62,583 bases of DNA, taken from positions 1 through 62,583 of the forward strand of contig CAZZKF010000004.1 of NCBI GenBank assembly GCA_964654995.1, given 5' to 3'. Both the position numbers and the translations under genes were made by a program. Under the pieces are notes generated by a model. It worked only from the letters and a program-made list of their open reading frames with translations. It did no database searches and was not told where the DNA came from. The stretch is from an uncultured Alphaproteobacteria bacterium. GTDB lineage: Bacteria; Pseudomonadota; Alphaproteobacteria; CAZZKF01. Position 1 is the first letter of the stretch. The number at the start of each line of letters is the position of its first letter. Of the stretch, positions 30,312-62,530 are shown piece after piece.

Positions 30312-30361
30312 AATCAGATTGTTACGTCATGATTATGATGTGATGCCTTTATTGCATTTGT

Positions 30362-30405
30362 GGGGTCGGAGCCGTTGTTGCGACAGCTCGTCGAGGTTCT
30401 GACGC
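30362..30405. repeat. Inverted pair of short motif copies forming a hairpin (GGGGTCGGAGCC ... GGTTCTGACGC)
   Basis: GTCGGAGCC (30365-30373) pairs with GGTTCTGAC (30395-30403) with two G-T wobbles; same motif as 31253-31264 and 32584-32592. Confidence 0.55.
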
Positions 30406-31238
30406 ATGCTGACGACTGTTCTGCTCCTGTCATTTGTTCTGGTCGGATCAACTCTTTTTGCCTTGCGCCTTTATGATCATCGGGCGGATTGCGCGGCCAT
30501 GAAGCGGCTTGCGTCCATGCAGCCGGCACGGCCCGCGTGCTTTGATCCCGAGATGATCGCCGACCTGCCGGAGCTCGCCCGTCGGTATTTTCTCTATACG
30601 ATAGAACCAGGCACACCACTCTATACGGTGGCCAACATCACCATGGCGGGACGGTTTGGGATGGGGACAAAAAACAAGCCCGGCTATCTTGATATGACGG
30701 CGACGCAGACCCTGGCCCTGCCTGCGGGATTTGTCTGGAAAATGCGCGCCCGACGCGGCCTGATAACTCTATCGGGCTCGGACAGTGAACGCTGGACACG
30801 GTTCTGACTGGTCGGGCTGCTACCTGTGGCGCGTATGGGTGGAGACCAGGATCATGCCCGCTCGGCATTCGGACGCTATGTGGCCGAGGCCCTGTTCTGG
30901 ACCCCCGCCGCAGTTTTGCCCGGTTCCGGTGTGAGTTGGGAGGGGTTGGGGGAAAATTGCGCCAGACTCACCGTCAGGCATCAGGGGGCGTCGCGGTCCG
31001 TCGATGTCACAGTGGCGCCGGACGGTCAGCCCACTCAGGTCAGCTTTGAGCGATGGAGCAATGCCAATCCCGAAAGCAGTACCGGCTGCAGTCTTTCGGG
31101 GGTTTTCTCTCCGAGTTTCGATGCTTCGACGGCTTCCATTTGCCCACACATGTGGAAGCGGGCGACCATTTTGGCACAGAGCTCTATTTTCCATTTTTCG
31201 TGGCGAATGTGACAGATGTCGAATTTCCCCACGATTGA
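30406..31238 (+). pseudogene. DUF6544-like membrane-anchored protein pseudogene
   Basis: Same frame continues across in-frame TGA 30805-30807 (WTRF*LVGLLPVAR); 1-nt frameshift at the A-run 31073-31075 (NANPE|KQYRLQSFGG) leads to the natural end YFPFFVANV at 31238; family call from recalled motif similarity. Confidence 0.8.
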
Positions 31239-31250
31239 ATCGAAATGTTG

Positions 31251-31267
31251 AGGGCTCTGACCCCTTT
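31251..31267 (+). repeat. Motif copy AGGGCTCTGACCCCTTT (imperfect palindrome)
   Basis: TCTGACCCCTTT 31256-31267 identical to 32584-32595; GGCTCTGACCCC matches the reverse complement of 30362-30373 at 11/12. Confidence 0.7.
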
Positions 31268-31338
31268 ACGAGCGTCGCGTAATCCGCCGAATGCCTGTAT
31301 CGGGATACATCCGGCGCAATACGCTTCGCTACTACGCC
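31266..31338. repeat. REP-doublet (REPIN-like) hairpin overlapping the PEP-CTERM stop codon
   Basis: GCGTAATCCGCCG (31277-31289) and CGGCGCAATACGCTTCGCTACTACGCC (31312-31338, GCGAAGC core on minus strand) flank the palindrome TGTATC-GG-GATACA. Confidence 0.55.
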
Positions 31339-32069
31339 GGATGCGGGCTCAATCTTCGGCCCGAACACCTTCTCGATCTGCGCCGCCGGCGCATCATCAG
31401 GTCGAGACCGGCGAGACCAGCCCCGAACAGGGTGAGGCTGGCAGGCTCGGGAATTGCGTTTCCCACATCTCCCGCATCCCTGGTTTCCAGGATGACGTTG
31501 TCGAGGATGAGGCCGACGAAGTCGAAACCGGCATGGCTGAAGGTCAGCTTGTCACCGCCACCGCCAATCGTCAGATTTCGTGTAATCGTTTCGAACGGCG
31601 CGTCAAAAGCCTTCGTGAAGGATTCGTTGAGGTCGCCGAGCGTCACCGTGACCTCATCGTTAAGAGAAGCCCCGCGCTGGTTACCCGATAAATCGAAGCG
31701 CAGGGTATATGCGCCGGCAGCAAATGTCGTCTTGCTCACCAGGTCGCCTGCGCTGATAGATGTCCCGGCGAGATCGACGCACCGGCCGGCGCCCCCCACG
31801 CAATCAATGCTGAAGTCCCCCGACTGGATCAGGTCGACCGCGCCGTTAAGCACGTCCCAGTTGGTAAAGGCGTTGAAGTTCAGCACCGTACCGCTGCCCT
31901 CCGTGTCGAAGTTGTCCGACAGGACGACGACGGCGGAGGCGTTCCCCGCCAACAGTACGCCGCCGGCAACGAGGGTGGCCAGCAATGGCATTTGCGCACT
32001 ACCTAACATCCGCCTCAAACCCAGTCCCGCGAGGGCTGCGGCGGTGGCAGTGATGCGATGAAACAGCAT
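31332..32069 (-). CDS. PEP-CTERM sorting-domain surface protein
   Basis: Signal peptide ending GNASA, beta-rich Ser/Thr/Gly/Asp body, C-terminal IPEPASLTLFGAGLAGL followed by RRRRR; ATG 32069 is 6 nt from AAGGAG. Confidence 0.9.
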   Translation of the reverse strand: MLFHRITATAAALAGLGLRRMLGSAQMPLLATLVAGGVLLAGNASAVVVLSDNFDTEGSGTVLNFNAFTNWDVLNGAVDLIQSGDFSIDCVGGAGRCVDLAGTSISAGDLVSKTTFAAGAYTLRFDLSGNQRGASLNDEVTVTLGDLNESFTKAFDAPFETITRNLTIGGGGDKLTFSHAGFDFVGLILDNVILETRDAGDVGNAIPEPASLTLFGAGLAGLDLMMRRRRRSRRCSGRRLSPHPA

Positions 32070-32111
32070 GTTCATCTCCTTAGTTAGCTATCCGAACTCA
32101 ACCATCCAAAC

Positions 32112-32126
32112 GCAACCCGAATGCAA
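32112..32126 (-). promoter_or_regulatory. Degenerate proximal sigma54-like promoter TTGCAT-TCGGG-TTGC (invariant -24 GG reads TG)
   Basis: Matches TGGCAC-N5-TTGC except at the first G of -24 and the C; -12 element lies about 43 nt upstream of the PEP-CTERM ATG. Confidence 0.35.
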
Positions 32127-32220
32127 CGCTACAAACGCCGCGCCTTTCCTCGCGACCGGTGCGTCACGCGTCGAACTCCCTTCCGGTTGCCGACAGGCGC
32201 ACCTAAGTGACGGCGAGACA

Positions 32221-32236
32221 AGCAAGAATTATACCG
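32221..32236 (-). promoter_or_regulatory. Putative sigma54 promoter CGGTATAATTCTTGCT (GG-N10-GC)
   Basis: Exact GG-N10-GC spacing with TTGCT -12; lies between PEP-CTERM gene and enhancer array. Confidence 0.5.
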
Positions 32237-32255
32237 CCATCCCGGTATTCTTTAA

Positions 32256-32268
32256 TTTCAACAACTTA
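32256..32268 (+). promoter_or_regulatory. IHF-like site TTTCAACAACTTA
   Basis: One mismatch to WATCAANNNNTTR, in an AT tract between the sigma54 site and the first enhancer. Confidence 0.45.
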
Positions 32269-32298
32269 AAAGTGGCGCAATTGGGTGGTGCGCGCGCG

Positions 32299-32562
32299 AC
32301 TGTCAAGAAATCCGACGCTCAAACCGCCGCCACCGCTCCGACGCGGCGCCGTCGAACGTAAAACATAAAGCCTGTCAGTGCCTTACGATTACGCACGAGG
32401 CGGCTCCGCGGAAATGCCGAACTGTCAAGAAATCCGACACTCAAACCGCCGCCACCGCTCCGACGCGGCCCCGTCGAACGTAAAACATAAAGCCTGGCAG
32501 TGGCTTACGATTGCGCACGAGGCGGCTCCGCAGAAAATAGAGAACTGTAAAGAAATCCGACA
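32299..32562. repeat. Tandem repeat, 122/123-bp unit, two full copies plus a partial third, each starting with a TGT-N11-ACA type enhancer
   Basis: TGTCAAGAAATCCGACG 32301-32317, TGTCAAGAAATCCGACA 32423-32439, TGTAAAGAAATCCGACA 32546-32562; units 1 and 2 differ at 5 of the first 111 nt. Confidence 0.92.
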
Positions 32563-32577
32563 CCTGGCGTCGATATA

Positions 32578-32595
32578 AAGGATTCTGACCCCTTT
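32578..32595 (+). repeat. Motif copy AAGGATTCTGACCCCTTT at the right islet boundary
   Basis: 12-nt identity with 31256-31267; panB promoter-like TTGACG follows at 32615. Confidence 0.7.
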
Positions 32596-32682
32596 TATGG
32601 GCGGTGCGGAGTGCTTGACGAATCGGGCCGGCCATGGGCATGGTGAGGCGGTATCCACTCCAGACAGCAGGACCATGCAATC

Positions 32683-33543
32683 ATGTCGGTACAACGCCCC
32701 GCGAAGCGCATGACGATCCCCCGGATTCGGGCCCGCAAGGGCGGCGATCCGGTGGTCTGCCTGACCGCCTACACGACGCCGATGGCGGAGATCCTCGACG
32801 AGCATGTCGATCTGCTGCTGGTCGGCGATTCAGTGGGCATGGTGTTGCACGGTCTGCCCAGTACGCTCGGTGTGACGCTGGAGATGATGGCGATGCACGG
32901 CGCCGCGGTGGTGCGCGGCGCGCGCCATGCCTGCGTGATCATCGACATGCCGTTCGGCAGCTATGAGGAAAGCCCGCAGATCGCCTATCGCAATGCTGCC
33001 CGCCTGATGCGTGAGACCGGCTGCGCCGGCGTCAAGCTGGAAGGCGGCCAGGCGATGGCCGAGACCATCGCGTTTCTCACCGCCCGCGGCATTCCGGTGA
33101 TGGCCCATATCGGCCTGCAGCCGCAGTCGGTTAATGTCACCGGCGGCTACAAGGCGCAGGGCCGCGCCCGGGCCGAATGGGACCGCTTTCTGGCCGATGC
33201 CCGGGCGGTCGACGAGGCCGGCGCCTTTGCCACCGTGATCGAGGCGGTGGCCGAACCCCTGGCCGCGGCGATCACCAAGGAAGTGAAGAACGTGACCATC
33301 GGCATCGGCGCCTCGGCCGCCTGTGACGGCCAGATTCTGGTGACCGAGGACCTGCTCGGCCTGTTCGAGCGCAGCCCCAAGTTCGTCAAGCGCTATGCCG
33401 ACATGCGGGCGCTGATCGCCAAGGCGGCGCGAGGCTATGCCGAGGACGTGCGGGCGCGTACGTTCCCCGGGCCCGATCACGTCTATGCGCCGGAAGACGA
33501 GAGCGCCGGGGCGATCCCGCTCTATCCCCGGGCCGGGGTCTGA
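32683..33543 (+). CDS. panB: 3-methyl-2-oxobutanoate hydroxymethyltransferase
   Basis: [43 protein letters not shown]. Confidence 0.98.
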
Positions 33544-40031: not shown

Positions 40032-41399
40032 TCAGTGGTCTGCGCCGGCCATCAATAGATCGGCCAGACCGGCGACGCTGTCAATGACGGTGACCTCGAT
40101 TCCGTCCGATCCGGCGGCCGCAGCCTGCGGCGCAAAGGCGCGGGCAAAGCCCAGTTTCGCGGCCTCGCGCAGGCGCGCACCCGGTTTTGATACCGGCCGG
40201 ACCTCGCCGGACAGGCCGATTTCACCGAAAAACACCGATTTGTCGGGCACCGCCACGTCGCCGGCCGAGGAAATCAGCGCCGCGGCCGCCGCCAGGTCGG
40301 CCGCCGGCTCGACGATCCGCAGGCCGCCGGCAACGTTGAGATAGACCTCGCGCGCGGCCAGCGCCAGCCCGGCGCGGCGCTCGAGGACCGCCAGGATCAT
40401 CGCCAGGCGCGCCCCGTCCCAGCCGACCACGGCGCGCCGCGGGGTTGCCAGCGGCGACGGCGCCACCAGCGCCTGAATCTCGACCAGCACAGGCCGCGAG
40501 CCTTCGATGCCGGCGAACACGGCGGCGCCGCTGACCGGCGTCCTGCGCTCACCCAGGAACAGGGACGAGGGATTGGCGACCTGGCGCAAGCCGGCGTCGG
40601 TCATCTCGAAGACGCCGATTTCTTCGGTGCCGCCAAAGCGGTTCTTGACCGAGCGCAGGATGCGGTACTGATGGCCGCGCTCGCCCTCGAAATAGAGCAC
40701 CGTGTCCACCATGTGCTCGAGCACCCGCGGGCCGGCGATCTGGCCGTCCTTGGTGACATGGCCGACCAGGAACAGGGCGGCGCCGCGACGCTTGGCAAAG
40801 CGGATCAGCTCCTGGGCGCTGGCCCGGACCTGAGCGACCGTGCCGGGGGCGGACTCGAGCACATCGACAAACATCGTCTGGATCGAATCGATGACCACCA
40901 CATCCGCCGGCGTGCCGCCCTCAAGTGTGGCGAGGATGTCGCGCACATTGGTCTCGGCCGCCAGCTTGATCGGCGCTTCGCCAAGCCCCAGACGGGCGGC
41001 GCGCATCTGGATCTGGGCCGGCGCCTCCTCGCCGGAGACATAGACGACGTCTGCGCCCGCTTTGGCCATGGCAGCGGCTGCCTGCAGCAGCAGCGTCGAT
41101 TTGCCGATCCCGGGATCGCCGCCGATCAGAACCGCCGATCCGGCCACCAGCCCACCGCCCAAGACCCGGTCGAGCTCGGCAATGCCGGCGGGGCGGCGCG
41201 GCGCGGTGTCCTCGAGGCCGGGCAGATCGGCGAGCTCGACGACCTTGCCGCGCCGCCGCCCCAGCCCGCGCGGCGCGCTGTCCCGGGGAACGGTTTCGAC
41301 GACGCTGTTCCATTCCGAACAGGCCTCGCAACGCCCGGTCCATTTGGCATAGACGGCGCCGCAGCTCTGACAGACGTAGCGATCAGCGGTCTTGGCCAT
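40032..41399 (-). CDS. radA: DNA repair protein RadA/Sms
   Basis: CQSC...CEAC zinc finger, GDPGIGKS, KNRFG motif, Lon-like C-terminus. Confidence 0.98.
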   Translation of the reverse strand: MAKTADRYVCQSCGAVYAKWTGRCEACSEWNSVVETVPRDSAPRGLGRRRGKVVELADLPGLEDTAPRRPAGIAELDRVLGGGLVAGSAVLIGGDPGIGKSTLLLQAAAAMAKAGADVVYVSGEEAPAQIQMRAARLGLGEAPIKLAAETNVRDILATLEGGTPADVVVIDSIQTMFVDVLESAPGTVAQVRASAQELIRFAKRRGAALFLVGHVTKDGQIAGPRVLEHMVDTVLYFEGERGHQYRILRSVKNRFGGTEEIGVFEMTDAGLRQVANPSSLFLGERRTPVSGAAVFAGIEGSRPVLVEIQALVAPSPLATPRRAVVGWDGARLAMILAVLERRAGLALAAREVYLNVAGGLRIVEPAADLAAAAALISSAGDVAVPDKSVFFGEIGLSGEVRPVSKPGARLREAAKLGFARAFAPQAAAAGSDGIEVTVIDSVAGLADLLMAGADH

Positions 41400-60277: not shown

Positions 60278-62530
60278 TTATCCCAGGTGCTTCAGCTTGA
60301 GCCGGAGAATCACCGAAGTCGACGGCTGCAGCTCGCGGTCGGCAGTGAAATCGCGGCGAATGGTGAGCCCCAGGTCGATGCAGTCATCGCGATAAAAGAC
60401 GCCGCCTTCGGCCAGGATGTTGTGGTGTCGATCGAGGTTGCGGATGAACCGGCCGCTGGCCCACCAGTTGGGCGCCAGGCGCAGGCGCATGGCCGCGCGG
60501 ACCTCGCGGCGGTCCGGGCGCAAGGGATCATCCGACTTGTTGTTGATGTCGAGAAATCCGAGATCGAGCCGCAGCCGACTTCCCGGGGTCAGCACCAGAT
60601 CGACCTCGGTGCGCCGCAGCGCCAGGCTGTGGCGATCGAGGCGCAGGCGATGGATCAGCTCGACGGTCTCGCCCAGCGTCAGTTGCAGCCGGGCGATGAA
60701 GTCGGAGAGGCGGCGATCGAGCCCGGCCAGCGCCGGGACCGGCCCGCGATCGCTTAAGCGGTAGCTTTGTCCGACCAGCAGGTCGAGACCGGTGCCATCC
60801 GCCGCGTTGAGCGCATAGCGCAGGCCGTAATTGACCCGGCTTCCCGAATCGAAGCGGTCGCGCCCGGTAAAGCGATTGGCCCGGAACAGATTGCTGACGT
60901 CGAACTGGAAGCTCTGGCTGTCCTCGTTGGGAATGTCGGCGGGATTGCCGGTATCCGGCGCCGCAATGATCGACACGATGGGCTCGATGATCTGGGTGAT
61001 GTGCGGCCCGCGCCGGATCAGCGGCAGGCGCGAGTCGATCACCAGTTGCGGCACCAGCCGGCCGGTGACATTGGTCCTGGTGACACTCGGCGGGGTGATC
61101 AGATCGCTGGGCCGGTACACGCCGTCGGTGTAATAGAGATCGCCGGCAATGCGCGCCGTGATCCGGGTGAGCGCACCGAAGCGGCTGACCATCGGCATCT
61201 GCCAGTTCACATCCAGTGAGGCGCGTCGGGTATCGGCTCCAGCGGTGCGTTGCAGCACGACGAGGCCGGCGTCCATCCCGAAGCGGCCGCCCAGCCAGCC
61301 GGGCTTGCCGACGTAGGAATATTCCGCCATCGGCAGCACAAACGGGGTCTGGCCGGCGACATCCTCGATCCTGAGCCCCTGAAAGGCATAGGCACTGATG
61401 GCGCCATAGCTGCGCCCGGCGAAATGCTCGACGAACAGGCGGCTGGTCAGCGTTTCCGCCTCGCTCACCCCATAACGGCGCAGATAGGTGTCATCGCCGG
61501 TCCAGGCGGCATCGAACCCCCAGCGGGTGTTGTCCGAGATGCGAAAGCGGCCGTTTCCGAAGATGTGGCCGCGAAAGATCCGGCGGCCGGTCTTTTCGTT
61601 GAAATCGTCGCGTTCATCAACACGGGTCACCGAGCCCGACAGCGCATACTGACCGCTGCGGGTGCGCTGCCGGTATTCGCCGAAGAAGGCGACGCCTTCC
61701 TTGGTCGTGAACAGCGGTGCAAAGGTGATATCGCGATTCGGCGCCAGCGCGAAATAATAGGGGATCTGAACCTTGGCGCCGAGGAACGACGAGCTTCCGA
61801 CCTCGGGCACGAGAAAGCCGCTGCGCCGCTTCACCGTCGGGTCGGGATGCGAGAGATAGGGCAGATAGGCGATCGGCAGGCCGAAGACTTCGAGGACCGC
61901 GTTCTTGTAGACGATGGTCTTCTCATCCTCCTTGTGAATGACCTTGGCGGCCTTGATCTGCCACACCGGCGGGCGTTTCTGGCCCTCGCAGATCTTGCAC
62001 GGCGAATAGACCGCGCGGGTCAGCGTGTTGCGCCGGTCGCGGCTGCGCCGGGCATCAATGGCGGCGAGGCGCGAGCCGTCGGAAAACAGCAGCCGGATAT
62101 GACGGATGATGCCATCGCGCAGATCGCTGGACAGCTCCACCTCGTCGGCGAACAGGCGATTGCCGCTCATGTCGGTAATGCGAACATTGCCGCTGGCCCG
62201 GATCTGGCCCGACGTCTGATCGTAGGTCAGAAGGTCGGCGGCAAGCCGGCGCTGTTTGTAGAGAACCTCGACATGGCCGCGGGCCTCGAAGGTGCCGGAC
62301 TCGCGGTCGTAGACCATTTCATCGGCCGACAGCGTCATCCGTCCGTCACCGGCCTGCCCGTCCGGTTCGGCCCGCGCCGCGCCGAGGACGGCAGCGGCGA
62401 ACAGAACGGCCAGGACCAGCAGCCCGATCGCCGAAGTGTGGAAGCGGGGGGCTCCGGATGCCGTTTTGCCTGCCATGCCGCGTCGCGCCAAAAGGCCCGC
62501 TCCCGCCTTGTGCCCTGGATGCCGGGCCAC
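60278..62530 (-). CDS. lptD: LPS-assembly protein LptD
   Basis: OstA-like N-domain, YSPC..C, WQIKA, PDPTVKRRSGFL, C-terminal DDC; start uncertain. Confidence 0.95.
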   Translation of the reverse strand: MARHPGHKAGAGLLARRGMAGKTASGAPRFHTSAIGLLVLAVLFAAAVLGAARAEPDGQAGDGRMTLSADEMVYDRESGTFEARGHVEVLYKQRRLAADLLTYDQTSGQIRASGNVRITDMSGNRLFADEVELSSDLRDGIIRHIRLLFSDGSRLAAIDARRSRDRRNTLTRAVYSPCKICEGQKRPPVWQIKAAKVIHKEDEKTIVYKNAVLEVFGLPIAYLPYLSHPDPTVKRRSGFLVPEVGSSSFLGAKVQIPYYFALAPNRDITFAPLFTTKEGVAFFGEYRQRTRSGQYALSGSVTRVDERDDFNEKTGRRIFRGHIFGNGRFRISDNTRWGFDAAWTGDDTYLRRYGVSEAETLTSRLFVEHFAGRSYGAISAYAFQGLRIEDVAGQTPFVLPMAEYSYVGKPGWLGGRFGMDAGLVVLQRTAGADTRRASLDVNWQMPMVSRFGALTRITARIAGDLYYTDGVYRPSDLITPPSVTRTNVTGRLVPQLVIDSRLPLIRRGPHITQIIEPIVSIIAAPDTGNPADIPNEDSQSFQFDVSNLFRANRFTGRDRFDSGSRVNYGLRYALNAADGTGLDLLVGQSYRLSDRGPVPALAGLDRRLSDFIARLQLTLGETVELIHRLRLDRHSLALRRTEVDLVLTPGSRLRLDLGFLDINNKSDDPLRPDRREVRAAMRLRLAPNWWASGRFIRNLDRHHNILAEGGVFYRDDCIDLGLTIRRDFTADRELQPSTSVILRLKLKHLG

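Follow-up and report, generated by a model that had tools for sequence, protein, structure and literature searches.

A predicted PrsR-box enhancer expanded by a 122-bp tandem duplication at a candidate sigma-54 promoter of a PEP-CTERM gene in an uncultured alphaproteobacterium

Introduction

Enhancers with several sites are familiar from activators of the NtrC family, for example NtrC at glnAp2 and NifA, whose TGT-N10-ACA upstream activating sequences operate with IHF-assisted looping. Repeat-number-dependent promoters, which serve expression tuning or phase variation, are known from pathogenic Neisseria and Haemophilus. The closest described system is the region upstream of proteobacterial PEP-CTERM genes, in which Haft (2006, PMC1569441) recognized a 17-nt motif 1 ending in TTTACA and 'sometimes repeated', a spacer of 62.8 ± 10.6 nt (range 32-92), and a 17-nt motif 2 carrying the sigma-54 elements, -24 GG and -12 GC; the response regulator PrsR was predicted there to bind motif 1 (PMC1569441). 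Moreover, the RpoN dependence of a PEP-CTERM gene was demonstrated in Aquincola in 2023 (PMC9850573).

In this study, a tandem repeat in the control region of one PEP-CTERM gene was investigated together with the box-bearing promoters of the same genome and of other Alphaproteobacteria. The window, meaning the whole stretch of 62,583 nt that was analysed, is contig C4 of a metagenome-assembled genome (G000) of 2.88 Mb, 164 contigs and 65% G+C, and the runs holding this sequence are microbial-mat metagenomes.

Results

Structure of the tandem repeat

Tandem Repeats Finder (TRF) detected one long-period repeat in the 62,583-nt window, at 32299-32563, with a period of 122, 2.2 copies, 92% matches and a score of 453. 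The repeat sits in the 607-bp gap between a PEP-CTERM gene and the divergently transcribed panB, and consists of the following parts:

32299..32420, minus strand: repeat unit 1, 122 bp, made of the gene-nearest predicted PrsR box and a 105-nt spacer body X (TRF, alignment)
32421..32543, minus strand: repeat unit 2, 123 bp, made of the middle predicted PrsR box and a spacer body X' (TRF, alignment)
32544..32563, minus strand: partial third unit, the distal predicted PrsR box alone with 2-3 flanking bases (alignment)

A sequence-only reading of this DNA had described a 122/123-bp tandem repeat whose units differ at five of their first 111 nt, and both statements were borne out by TRF and alignment, since units 1 and 2 are mismatched at unit positions 19, 50, 77, 83, 93 and 112, the first five of which fall within that stretch. 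The last 7-8 nt of the two units also differ, including a 1-nt indel, and identical runs of 26-57 nt are common to both; the local alignment score between their spacers is 169. The likeness of the third unit is limited to about the first 20 nt and stops right behind the box. When the unit was searched by blastn against the whole genome, no further copy of the unit body was found and the box was the sole part matched elsewhere, by which a dispersed repeat or mobile element was rejected.

The three boxes

The 17-mer TGTCGG-N5-TTTACA, read in gene orientation, is by its letters the 'PEP-CTERM box', that is motif 1, a predicted PrsR site. It occurs three times in the repeat:

32301..32317, minus strand: proximal PrsR box, predicted; TGTCAAGAAATCCGACG on the plus strand, CGTCGGATTTCTTGACA in gene orientation; 23.0 bits, the weakest of the three
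32423..32439, minus strand: middle PrsR box, predicted; TGTCAAGAAATCCGACA on the plus strand, TGTCGGATTTCTTGACA in gene orientation; 30.3 bits
32546..32562, minus strand: distal PrsR box, predicted; TGTAAAGAAATCCGACA on the plus strand, TGTCGGATTTCTTTACA in gene orientation; 34.5 bits, typical of the regulon

With TGTCAAGAAATCCGACA as query, the mismatches at 32301, 32423 and 32546 are 1, 0 and 1, respectively, which agrees with the three start positions read earlier and with the remark that the copy nearest the gene ends in ACG. Within the window, four 17-mers match with up to three mismatches, against 0.02 expected. The fourth of them, TGTCGAGAAATCCGAGA at 60547-60563, has two mismatches, falls within a 750-aa reading frame of the opposite strand and is probably a chance match.

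The scores of the three boxes, obtained with a matrix from the other loci of the genome, climb with distance from the gene (23.0, 30.3 and 34.5 bits). Position 1 of the proximal box is C, where 15 of 16 other boxes have T, and the distal box ends in TTTACA, the proximal and middle boxes in TTGACA. Between the units, the boxes differ at 1 of 17 positions and the spacer bodies at about 9 of 105, so the boxes have diverged no less than the spacers, and selection on the additional boxes is not apparent.

The sequence-only reading had assigned TGT-N11-ACA to the NtrC-family enhancer type, including PrsR at PEP-CTERM genes. The tie to PEP-CTERM genes stands, as the site agrees with motif 1 (PMC1569441) and serves to identify the regulon in this genome, but calling the PrsR site established was an overstatement, since PrsR binding is a bioinformatic prediction and was still termed 'previously predicted' in 2023 (PMC9850573). 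A role of the boxes in serving panB was also considered and rejected, because all boxes face the PEP-CTERM gene and inspection by eye of 32563-32682 revealed no -24/-12 element toward panB.

Promoter, IHF-consensus site and neighbouring genes

Between the repeat and the PEP-CTERM gene, and on the far side of the repeat, the following features were recognized:

32221..32236, minus strand: candidate sigma-54 promoter CGGTATAATTCTTGCT, with GG-N10-GC and TTGC; 16.5 bits
32256..32268, plus strand: IHF-consensus site TTTCAACAACTTA with one mismatch; it starts 32 nt ahead of the -24 element and is not part of the repeat
31332..32075, minus strand: target gene, a PEP-CTERM protein of 247 aa (TIGR02595, 18.4 bits, cut-off 16; PF07589, 27.2 bits, cut-off 20.7)
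32683-33543, plus strand: panB (PF02548, 341.7 bits)

The candidate promoter lies 64 nt past the proximal box and 81 nt from the first base of that box. It was scored with a matrix of the remaining 15 promoters, for which leave-one-out scores run from 11.9 to 25.5 bits; as 16.5 bits lies within this range, the candidate is acceptable, not strong, and its -24 hexamer, CGGTAT, departs from TGGCAC. A separate decayed sigma-54 promoter in each unit was rejected, as no GG-N10-GC/TTGC element was present 50-75 nt after the middle or the distal box, and the search of the 607-bp gap for a sigma-70 promoter found none.

In the spacers between proximal boxes and promoters, an IHF site with at most one mismatch was found at 8 of the 16 promoters (three of them perfect), against a mean of 0.8 in shuffled spacers, none of 2000 shuffles reaching 8. 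Six of these eight sites share the same orientation, and five, including 32256-32268, start 31-33 nt before the -24 element; four other regulon promoters carry a perfect or one-mismatch site at the same place and in the same orientation as the site reported here. The IHF-like 13-mers that had been proposed earlier for each full unit are a different matter: their letters are present, but they differ from WATCAANNNNTTR at two positions (32373-32385) and three positions (32495-32507), the genome has 2.1 sites per kb with up to two mismatches, and the 13-mers are accordingly at chance level. In the spacer bodies of the repeat, no IHF site with at most one mismatch was found. The IHF-consensus site whose position is conserved is not part of the repeat, so that only the activator site is multiplied by the duplication.

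An alternative ATG of the PEP-CTERM gene, at 32069, is better spaced from AAGGAG. Beside the gene there are two adjoining reading frames on the plus strand, 30406-30807 and 30826-31212, which cover positions 3-83 and then 107-178 of the DUF6544 profile and look like one frameshift-broken gene. In the sole genome of the same family (G001, locus L004), guaA is directly followed by panB across a 135-nt gap, with no PEP-CTERM gene; this adjacency indicates that the broken DUF6544 gene, the PEP-CTERM gene and its control region form a lineage-specific insertion of about 2.3 kb (30312-32682 of the window). DNA-pattern scans of the metagenome and genome collections found no orthologous locus, and protein-based scans for an orthologue yielded only a 36%-identical relative without boxes, with no match in the genome collection.

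The predicted PrsR/sigma-54 regulon of the genome

The scan upstream of other PEP-CTERM genes, which the sequence-only reading had suggested, gave a positive result. A box position matrix was made from 16 boxes of other loci, with the present locus excluded, and was applied to both strands at a threshold of 18 bits; it returned 26 sites in the genome, against 2 in a shuffled genome. Of these, 21 lie upstream of 12 PEP-CTERM genes, every one in the same orientation relative to its gene, in a genome with 17 PEP-CTERM domains. In the 16 control regions, each proximal box is followed by a GG-N10-GC/TTGC element 70-94 nt away, and three groups of distances from box to -24 element are seen: 70-72 nt at six promoters, 79-82 nt at five, the present locus among them with 82, and 91-94 nt at the other five (examples are G000:C52:1085, C24:5813 and C102:1737). 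The best period of these distances is 10.9 bp (R = 0.86, with none of 5000 randomisations as high), and ten of the 16 promoters have a single box at 70-94 nt.

Four of the five remaining boxes precede reading frames without a PEP-CTERM tail, each with a -24/-12 element (G000:C29:24159, C13:16176, C5:36048 and C60:4820), and one box among these four is about 4.5 kb from an exosortase gene. Such pairs of box and sigma-54 promoter suggest that the PrsR regulon seems to reach beyond PEP-CTERM genes.

The machinery that this scheme calls for is encoded in the genome. A prsK-prsR-prsT cluster is located at C2:64945-71296, with PrsR recognized by TIGR02915 (719 bits, cut-off 502.6), PrsK by TIGR02916 (776.5 bits) and PrsT by TIGR02917 (855.8 bits), the last two also over their cut-offs, and three PrsT paralogues are present. 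Additionally, an exosortase (TIGR02602, 219.7 bits) and RpoN (TIGR02395, 460.6 bits) were detected over their cut-offs, and ihfA, the gene for IHF-alpha, is encoded as well.

Two side observations were made at other promoters. At G000:C24:7852-10899, a 380-aa PEP-CTERM gene is present twice, 1752 bp apart, the two copies being identical in the gene as well as in the box and promoter regions; here a complete gene was recently duplicated in tandem along with its control region. The promoter on G000:C9, about 71 nt after the box at 40310, reads TTGCATGATTCTTGCA, with T in place of the first G of the -24 GG and otherwise consensus.

Multi-box promoters in this and other genomes

Apart from the present locus, six two-box promoters were found in the genome, with spacings of 98, 111, 132, 134, 134 and 143 bp. 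Their spacers are unrelated, as the in-register identity of 17-33% is at chance level and the local scores are 12-16. Among 20 box loci from other Alphaproteobacteria, 12 carry two or three boxes; same-facing boxes in those genomes are spaced 89-297 bp apart, with 122 or 123 bp at three unrelated promoters. TRF found no long-period tandem repeat in these 20 loci, and, together with the chance-level spacer identity, this led us to reject the possibility that the other two-box loci are duplications. The present locus is consequently the only sequence duplication among the 26 box loci examined (6 in the genome and 20 elsewhere). Another alphaproteobacterium has three boxes 297 and 148 bp apart with no sequence duplication (L018, G176:C30:11200-12500). 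Multiple boxes are normal for such promoters; a visible sequence duplication is the exception. By its length, the 122-bp unit is a reproduction of the usual inter-box distance of the predicted regulon.

Helical phase

At 10.5 bp per turn, 122-123 bp corresponds to 11.6-11.7 turns, and at that pitch the earlier suggestion that the sites alternate between faces of the DNA would hold. The spacings of the regulon speak for a longer effective period. All 21 sites outside the present locus fit best to a period of 11.06 bp (R = 0.76), and on this period the three boxes deviate by 0.4, 0.7 and 2.1 bp from the common phase. For the box-to-promoter distances, 10.5-11.5 bp fits nearly as well as the best value of about 10.9. 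When the own genome was taken alone and the period scan was allowed for, the phasing of the distal boxes with the promoter was not significant (808/4000). The 19 box-box spacings from all genomes are periodic (3/5000), with a period that is loosely fixed at 11.0-11.6 bp: at 11.0-11.1 bp (R 0.67) the boxes are in phase, and anti-phase results at 11.58 bp, where the fit is best (R = 0.72), so the face of the helix is not fixed by this range. In the ara and lac systems, looping in vivo is known to have periods near 11 bp.

Copy number and alleles

Copy number was assessed on assembler contigs, and runs X2 and X5 had no coverage of the repeat. In run X1, which is probably the source sample, a 125-nt contig corresponding to 32345-32469 passes with zero mismatches from letters specific to unit 1 across the junction into letters specific to unit 2. 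As this contig spans the junction, the two-unit structure is present in the reads and is no artefact of this assembly alone. The contigs of X1 and X2 were also searched for alternative junctions or joints, and none was found. Two further details of the contigs were recorded: the 57-nt X1 piece common to both units (window 32318-32374) has a depth of 33.3, not double the unit-specific depths of 26.6 and 28.3, and at window position 32470 the assembly has C, while the X1 and X3 contigs have G, as does unit 1 at the corresponding place.

Run X3 belongs to a different study (2025). One of its contigs, 253 nt long and of depth 3.2, begins in the left flank (32280-32296, 17 nt identical), passes directly into a single unit and extends past the distal box as far as 32656; 9 of 236 nt differ (about 96% identical). 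This is a probable one-unit, two-box allele in a strain that has diverged by about 4%, as read from a single contig at depth 3.2, at which a branch of the assembly graph was possibly missed. The letters of its unit are of the unit-1 type at positions 50, 77, 83 and 93, of the unit-2 type at 112 and in the tail, and consensus A at 19; a deletion by recombination between units 1 and 2 and an ancestral single unit both fit this pattern. A difference in copy number between strains is likely. Within the array itself, the units are merely 92% alike, which indicates that the duplication is old and that the array has not been homogenised by frequent exchange.

Discussion

Our data indicate that 32299-32563 is, with high probability, the upstream activating region of a sigma-54 promoter driving the PEP-CTERM gene at 31332-32075, and that the repeat is a duplicated module of box and spacer. 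The proximal box stands at one of the three -24/-12 distances that the regulon prefers, with an IHF-type bend site between, and phosphorylated PrsR on the box would contact the sigma-54 holoenzyme by looping and open the promoter. As for the origin, the partial third unit coincides exactly with a box, for which the simplest history suggested is a two-box ancestor of the form box-X-box-Y-promoter. This ancestor may have had its two boxes 122 bp apart, an arrangement common in the regulon, and unequal exchange between the two boxes would have duplicated 'box-X', unequal recombination or slippage between them giving box-X-box-X-box. The differences between the units are concentrated in the 7-8 nt ahead of the following box, which would not be expected from a clean crossover between boxes. 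As the unit is just as long as the inter-box distance, a new box gained in this way lands on the usual spacing of the regulon. The extra box would then offer a third loading place for PrsR, and should raise the local occupancy of the activator where the proximal box is degraded. In short, a normal two-box enhancer has been expanded in a single step, and the repeat is not a dedicated switching device.

A serious rival as regards function, which we regard as possible though on the doubtful side, is a neutral duplication, by which the PrsR/sigma-54 enhancer is real and the proximal box does the work, while the extra unit is a recombination accident with little or no change in expression. It is in keeping with the ten of 16 regulon promoters that manage with a single box at 70-94 nt, with the similar rates at which boxes and spacer bodies diverged between the units, and with the finding that no second tandem duplication exists in 26 box loci, so that such events do not look favoured. 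Nevertheless, two-box promoters with quantised spacing are frequent, which implies that upstream boxes are maintained in general, and at this locus both upstream boxes still score 30.3 and 34.5 bits while the damaging change is in the proximal one.

A more far-reaching extension of the expansion just described, to which we attach little weight, is that PrsR boxes, placed in quantised steps of about 11 bp with a recurrent 122-123 bp, double as recombination substrates, and that box number could be an evolvable, strain-variable dial for the output of individual PEP-CTERM proteins. If this were true, natural populations could gain and lose whole modules without breaking the phasing, and the dial would stand at one setting in the two-unit allele of this study and at another in the one-unit mosaic allele of the other mat sample.

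The sequence-only reading had gone further and proposed a rheostat or phase-variation device, in which frequent gain and loss of units tunes the expression of the surface protein within populations. What remains of this proposal is the probable one-unit allele in a related strain; no sign of frequent switching was seen, and we judge it quite unlikely. The mosaic pattern of the X3 contig does fit a deletion by recombination between units 1 and 2, which would mean at least two copy-number events, and the identical runs of 26-57 nt could support RecA recombination. On the other hand, the units, at 92% likeness, are neither near-identical nor short simple repeats, the source-sample contigs hold no alternative junctions, and the allele with one unit was found outside this population, in a strain with about 4% divergence. 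Phase-variable loci, to our knowledge, use short simple repeats or invertases, both of which are absent here, and no other regulon promoter has such a repeat.

It is very improbable that the repeat is an array of small-RNA genes or a processed RNA repeat in place of a protein-binding enhancer. Weak matches to a hairpin with a T-run lie on the minus strand inside each unit, and the minus-strand fold of unit 1 has z = -1.87; yet the other three unit folds (z = 0.93, -0.11 and 0.55) are no better than shuffles, an Rfam search with E up to 1 gave no match, the unit body occurs nowhere else in the genome, and the box, tied to sigma-54 promoters, is the sole part common to other loci. An assembly artefact, by which the second unit would be absent from the organism, can hardly be credited either: the depth of 33.3 in the common 57-nt piece of X1, not twice 26.6 and 28.3, and the mismatch between the assembly and the X1 contigs at 32470 speak for it, but the X1 contig 32345-32469 crosses the unit junction with no mismatch, and the units bear distinct letters that collapse or false expansion could not create.

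Under the preferred reading of a duplicated box-and-spacer module, the locus would offer a snapshot of a sigma-54 enhancer gaining a site, through duplication of one module bounded by the sites themselves. The surrounding analysis also gives a within-genome picture of the predicted PrsR regulon in an uncultured alphaproteobacterium, with 16 promoters, three distances, an IHF-consensus site fixed in half of them and periodic box-box spacing. Moreover, the natural pair of alleles, with two and three boxes, could serve to test whether upstream PrsR boxes matter.

With regard to known systems, the region resembles the enhancers of NtrC and NifA in its dyad-like TGT...ACA sites upstream of a -24/-12 promoter, in the IHF-consensus site between them and in the face-of-helix quantisation of the distances. 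It departs from glnAp2 in the distance between sites, as the boxes of this genome are 98-143 bp apart and the glnAp2 sites are adjacent, at about three turns; and unlike the sites of NtrC and NifA, the PrsR box is asymmetric and always has one orientation, with binding here being predicted. With the repeat promoters of Neisseria and Haemophilus the locus shares a control-region repeat that, in at least one instance, probably differs in copy number between strains, whereas the unit here is long (122 bp), has two copies that are 8% diverged, and showed no variation within the population in assembler contigs; the mechanism here would be the number of sites and not promoter spacing. The nearest likeness is to the region of Haft (2006, PMC1569441), with which the locus has in common the 17-nt motif ending in TTTACA and its occurrence in repeated form, the -24 GG and -12 GC, a long untranslated leader and a single-gene PEP-CTERM unit, as well as a spacer of 64 nt against the published mean of 62.8. 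It differs in that the third box has come with a visible duplication of 122 bp, where the paper has repeated motifs and not duplicated spacers, and in that neither the proximal box nor the -24 element conforms to consensus; and for the distance between box and promoter, where the paper (PMC1569441) gives a mean and SD, three discrete classes were found in this study. The control scheme having been known from comparative genomics since 2006, the locus in itself is an ordinary member of it.
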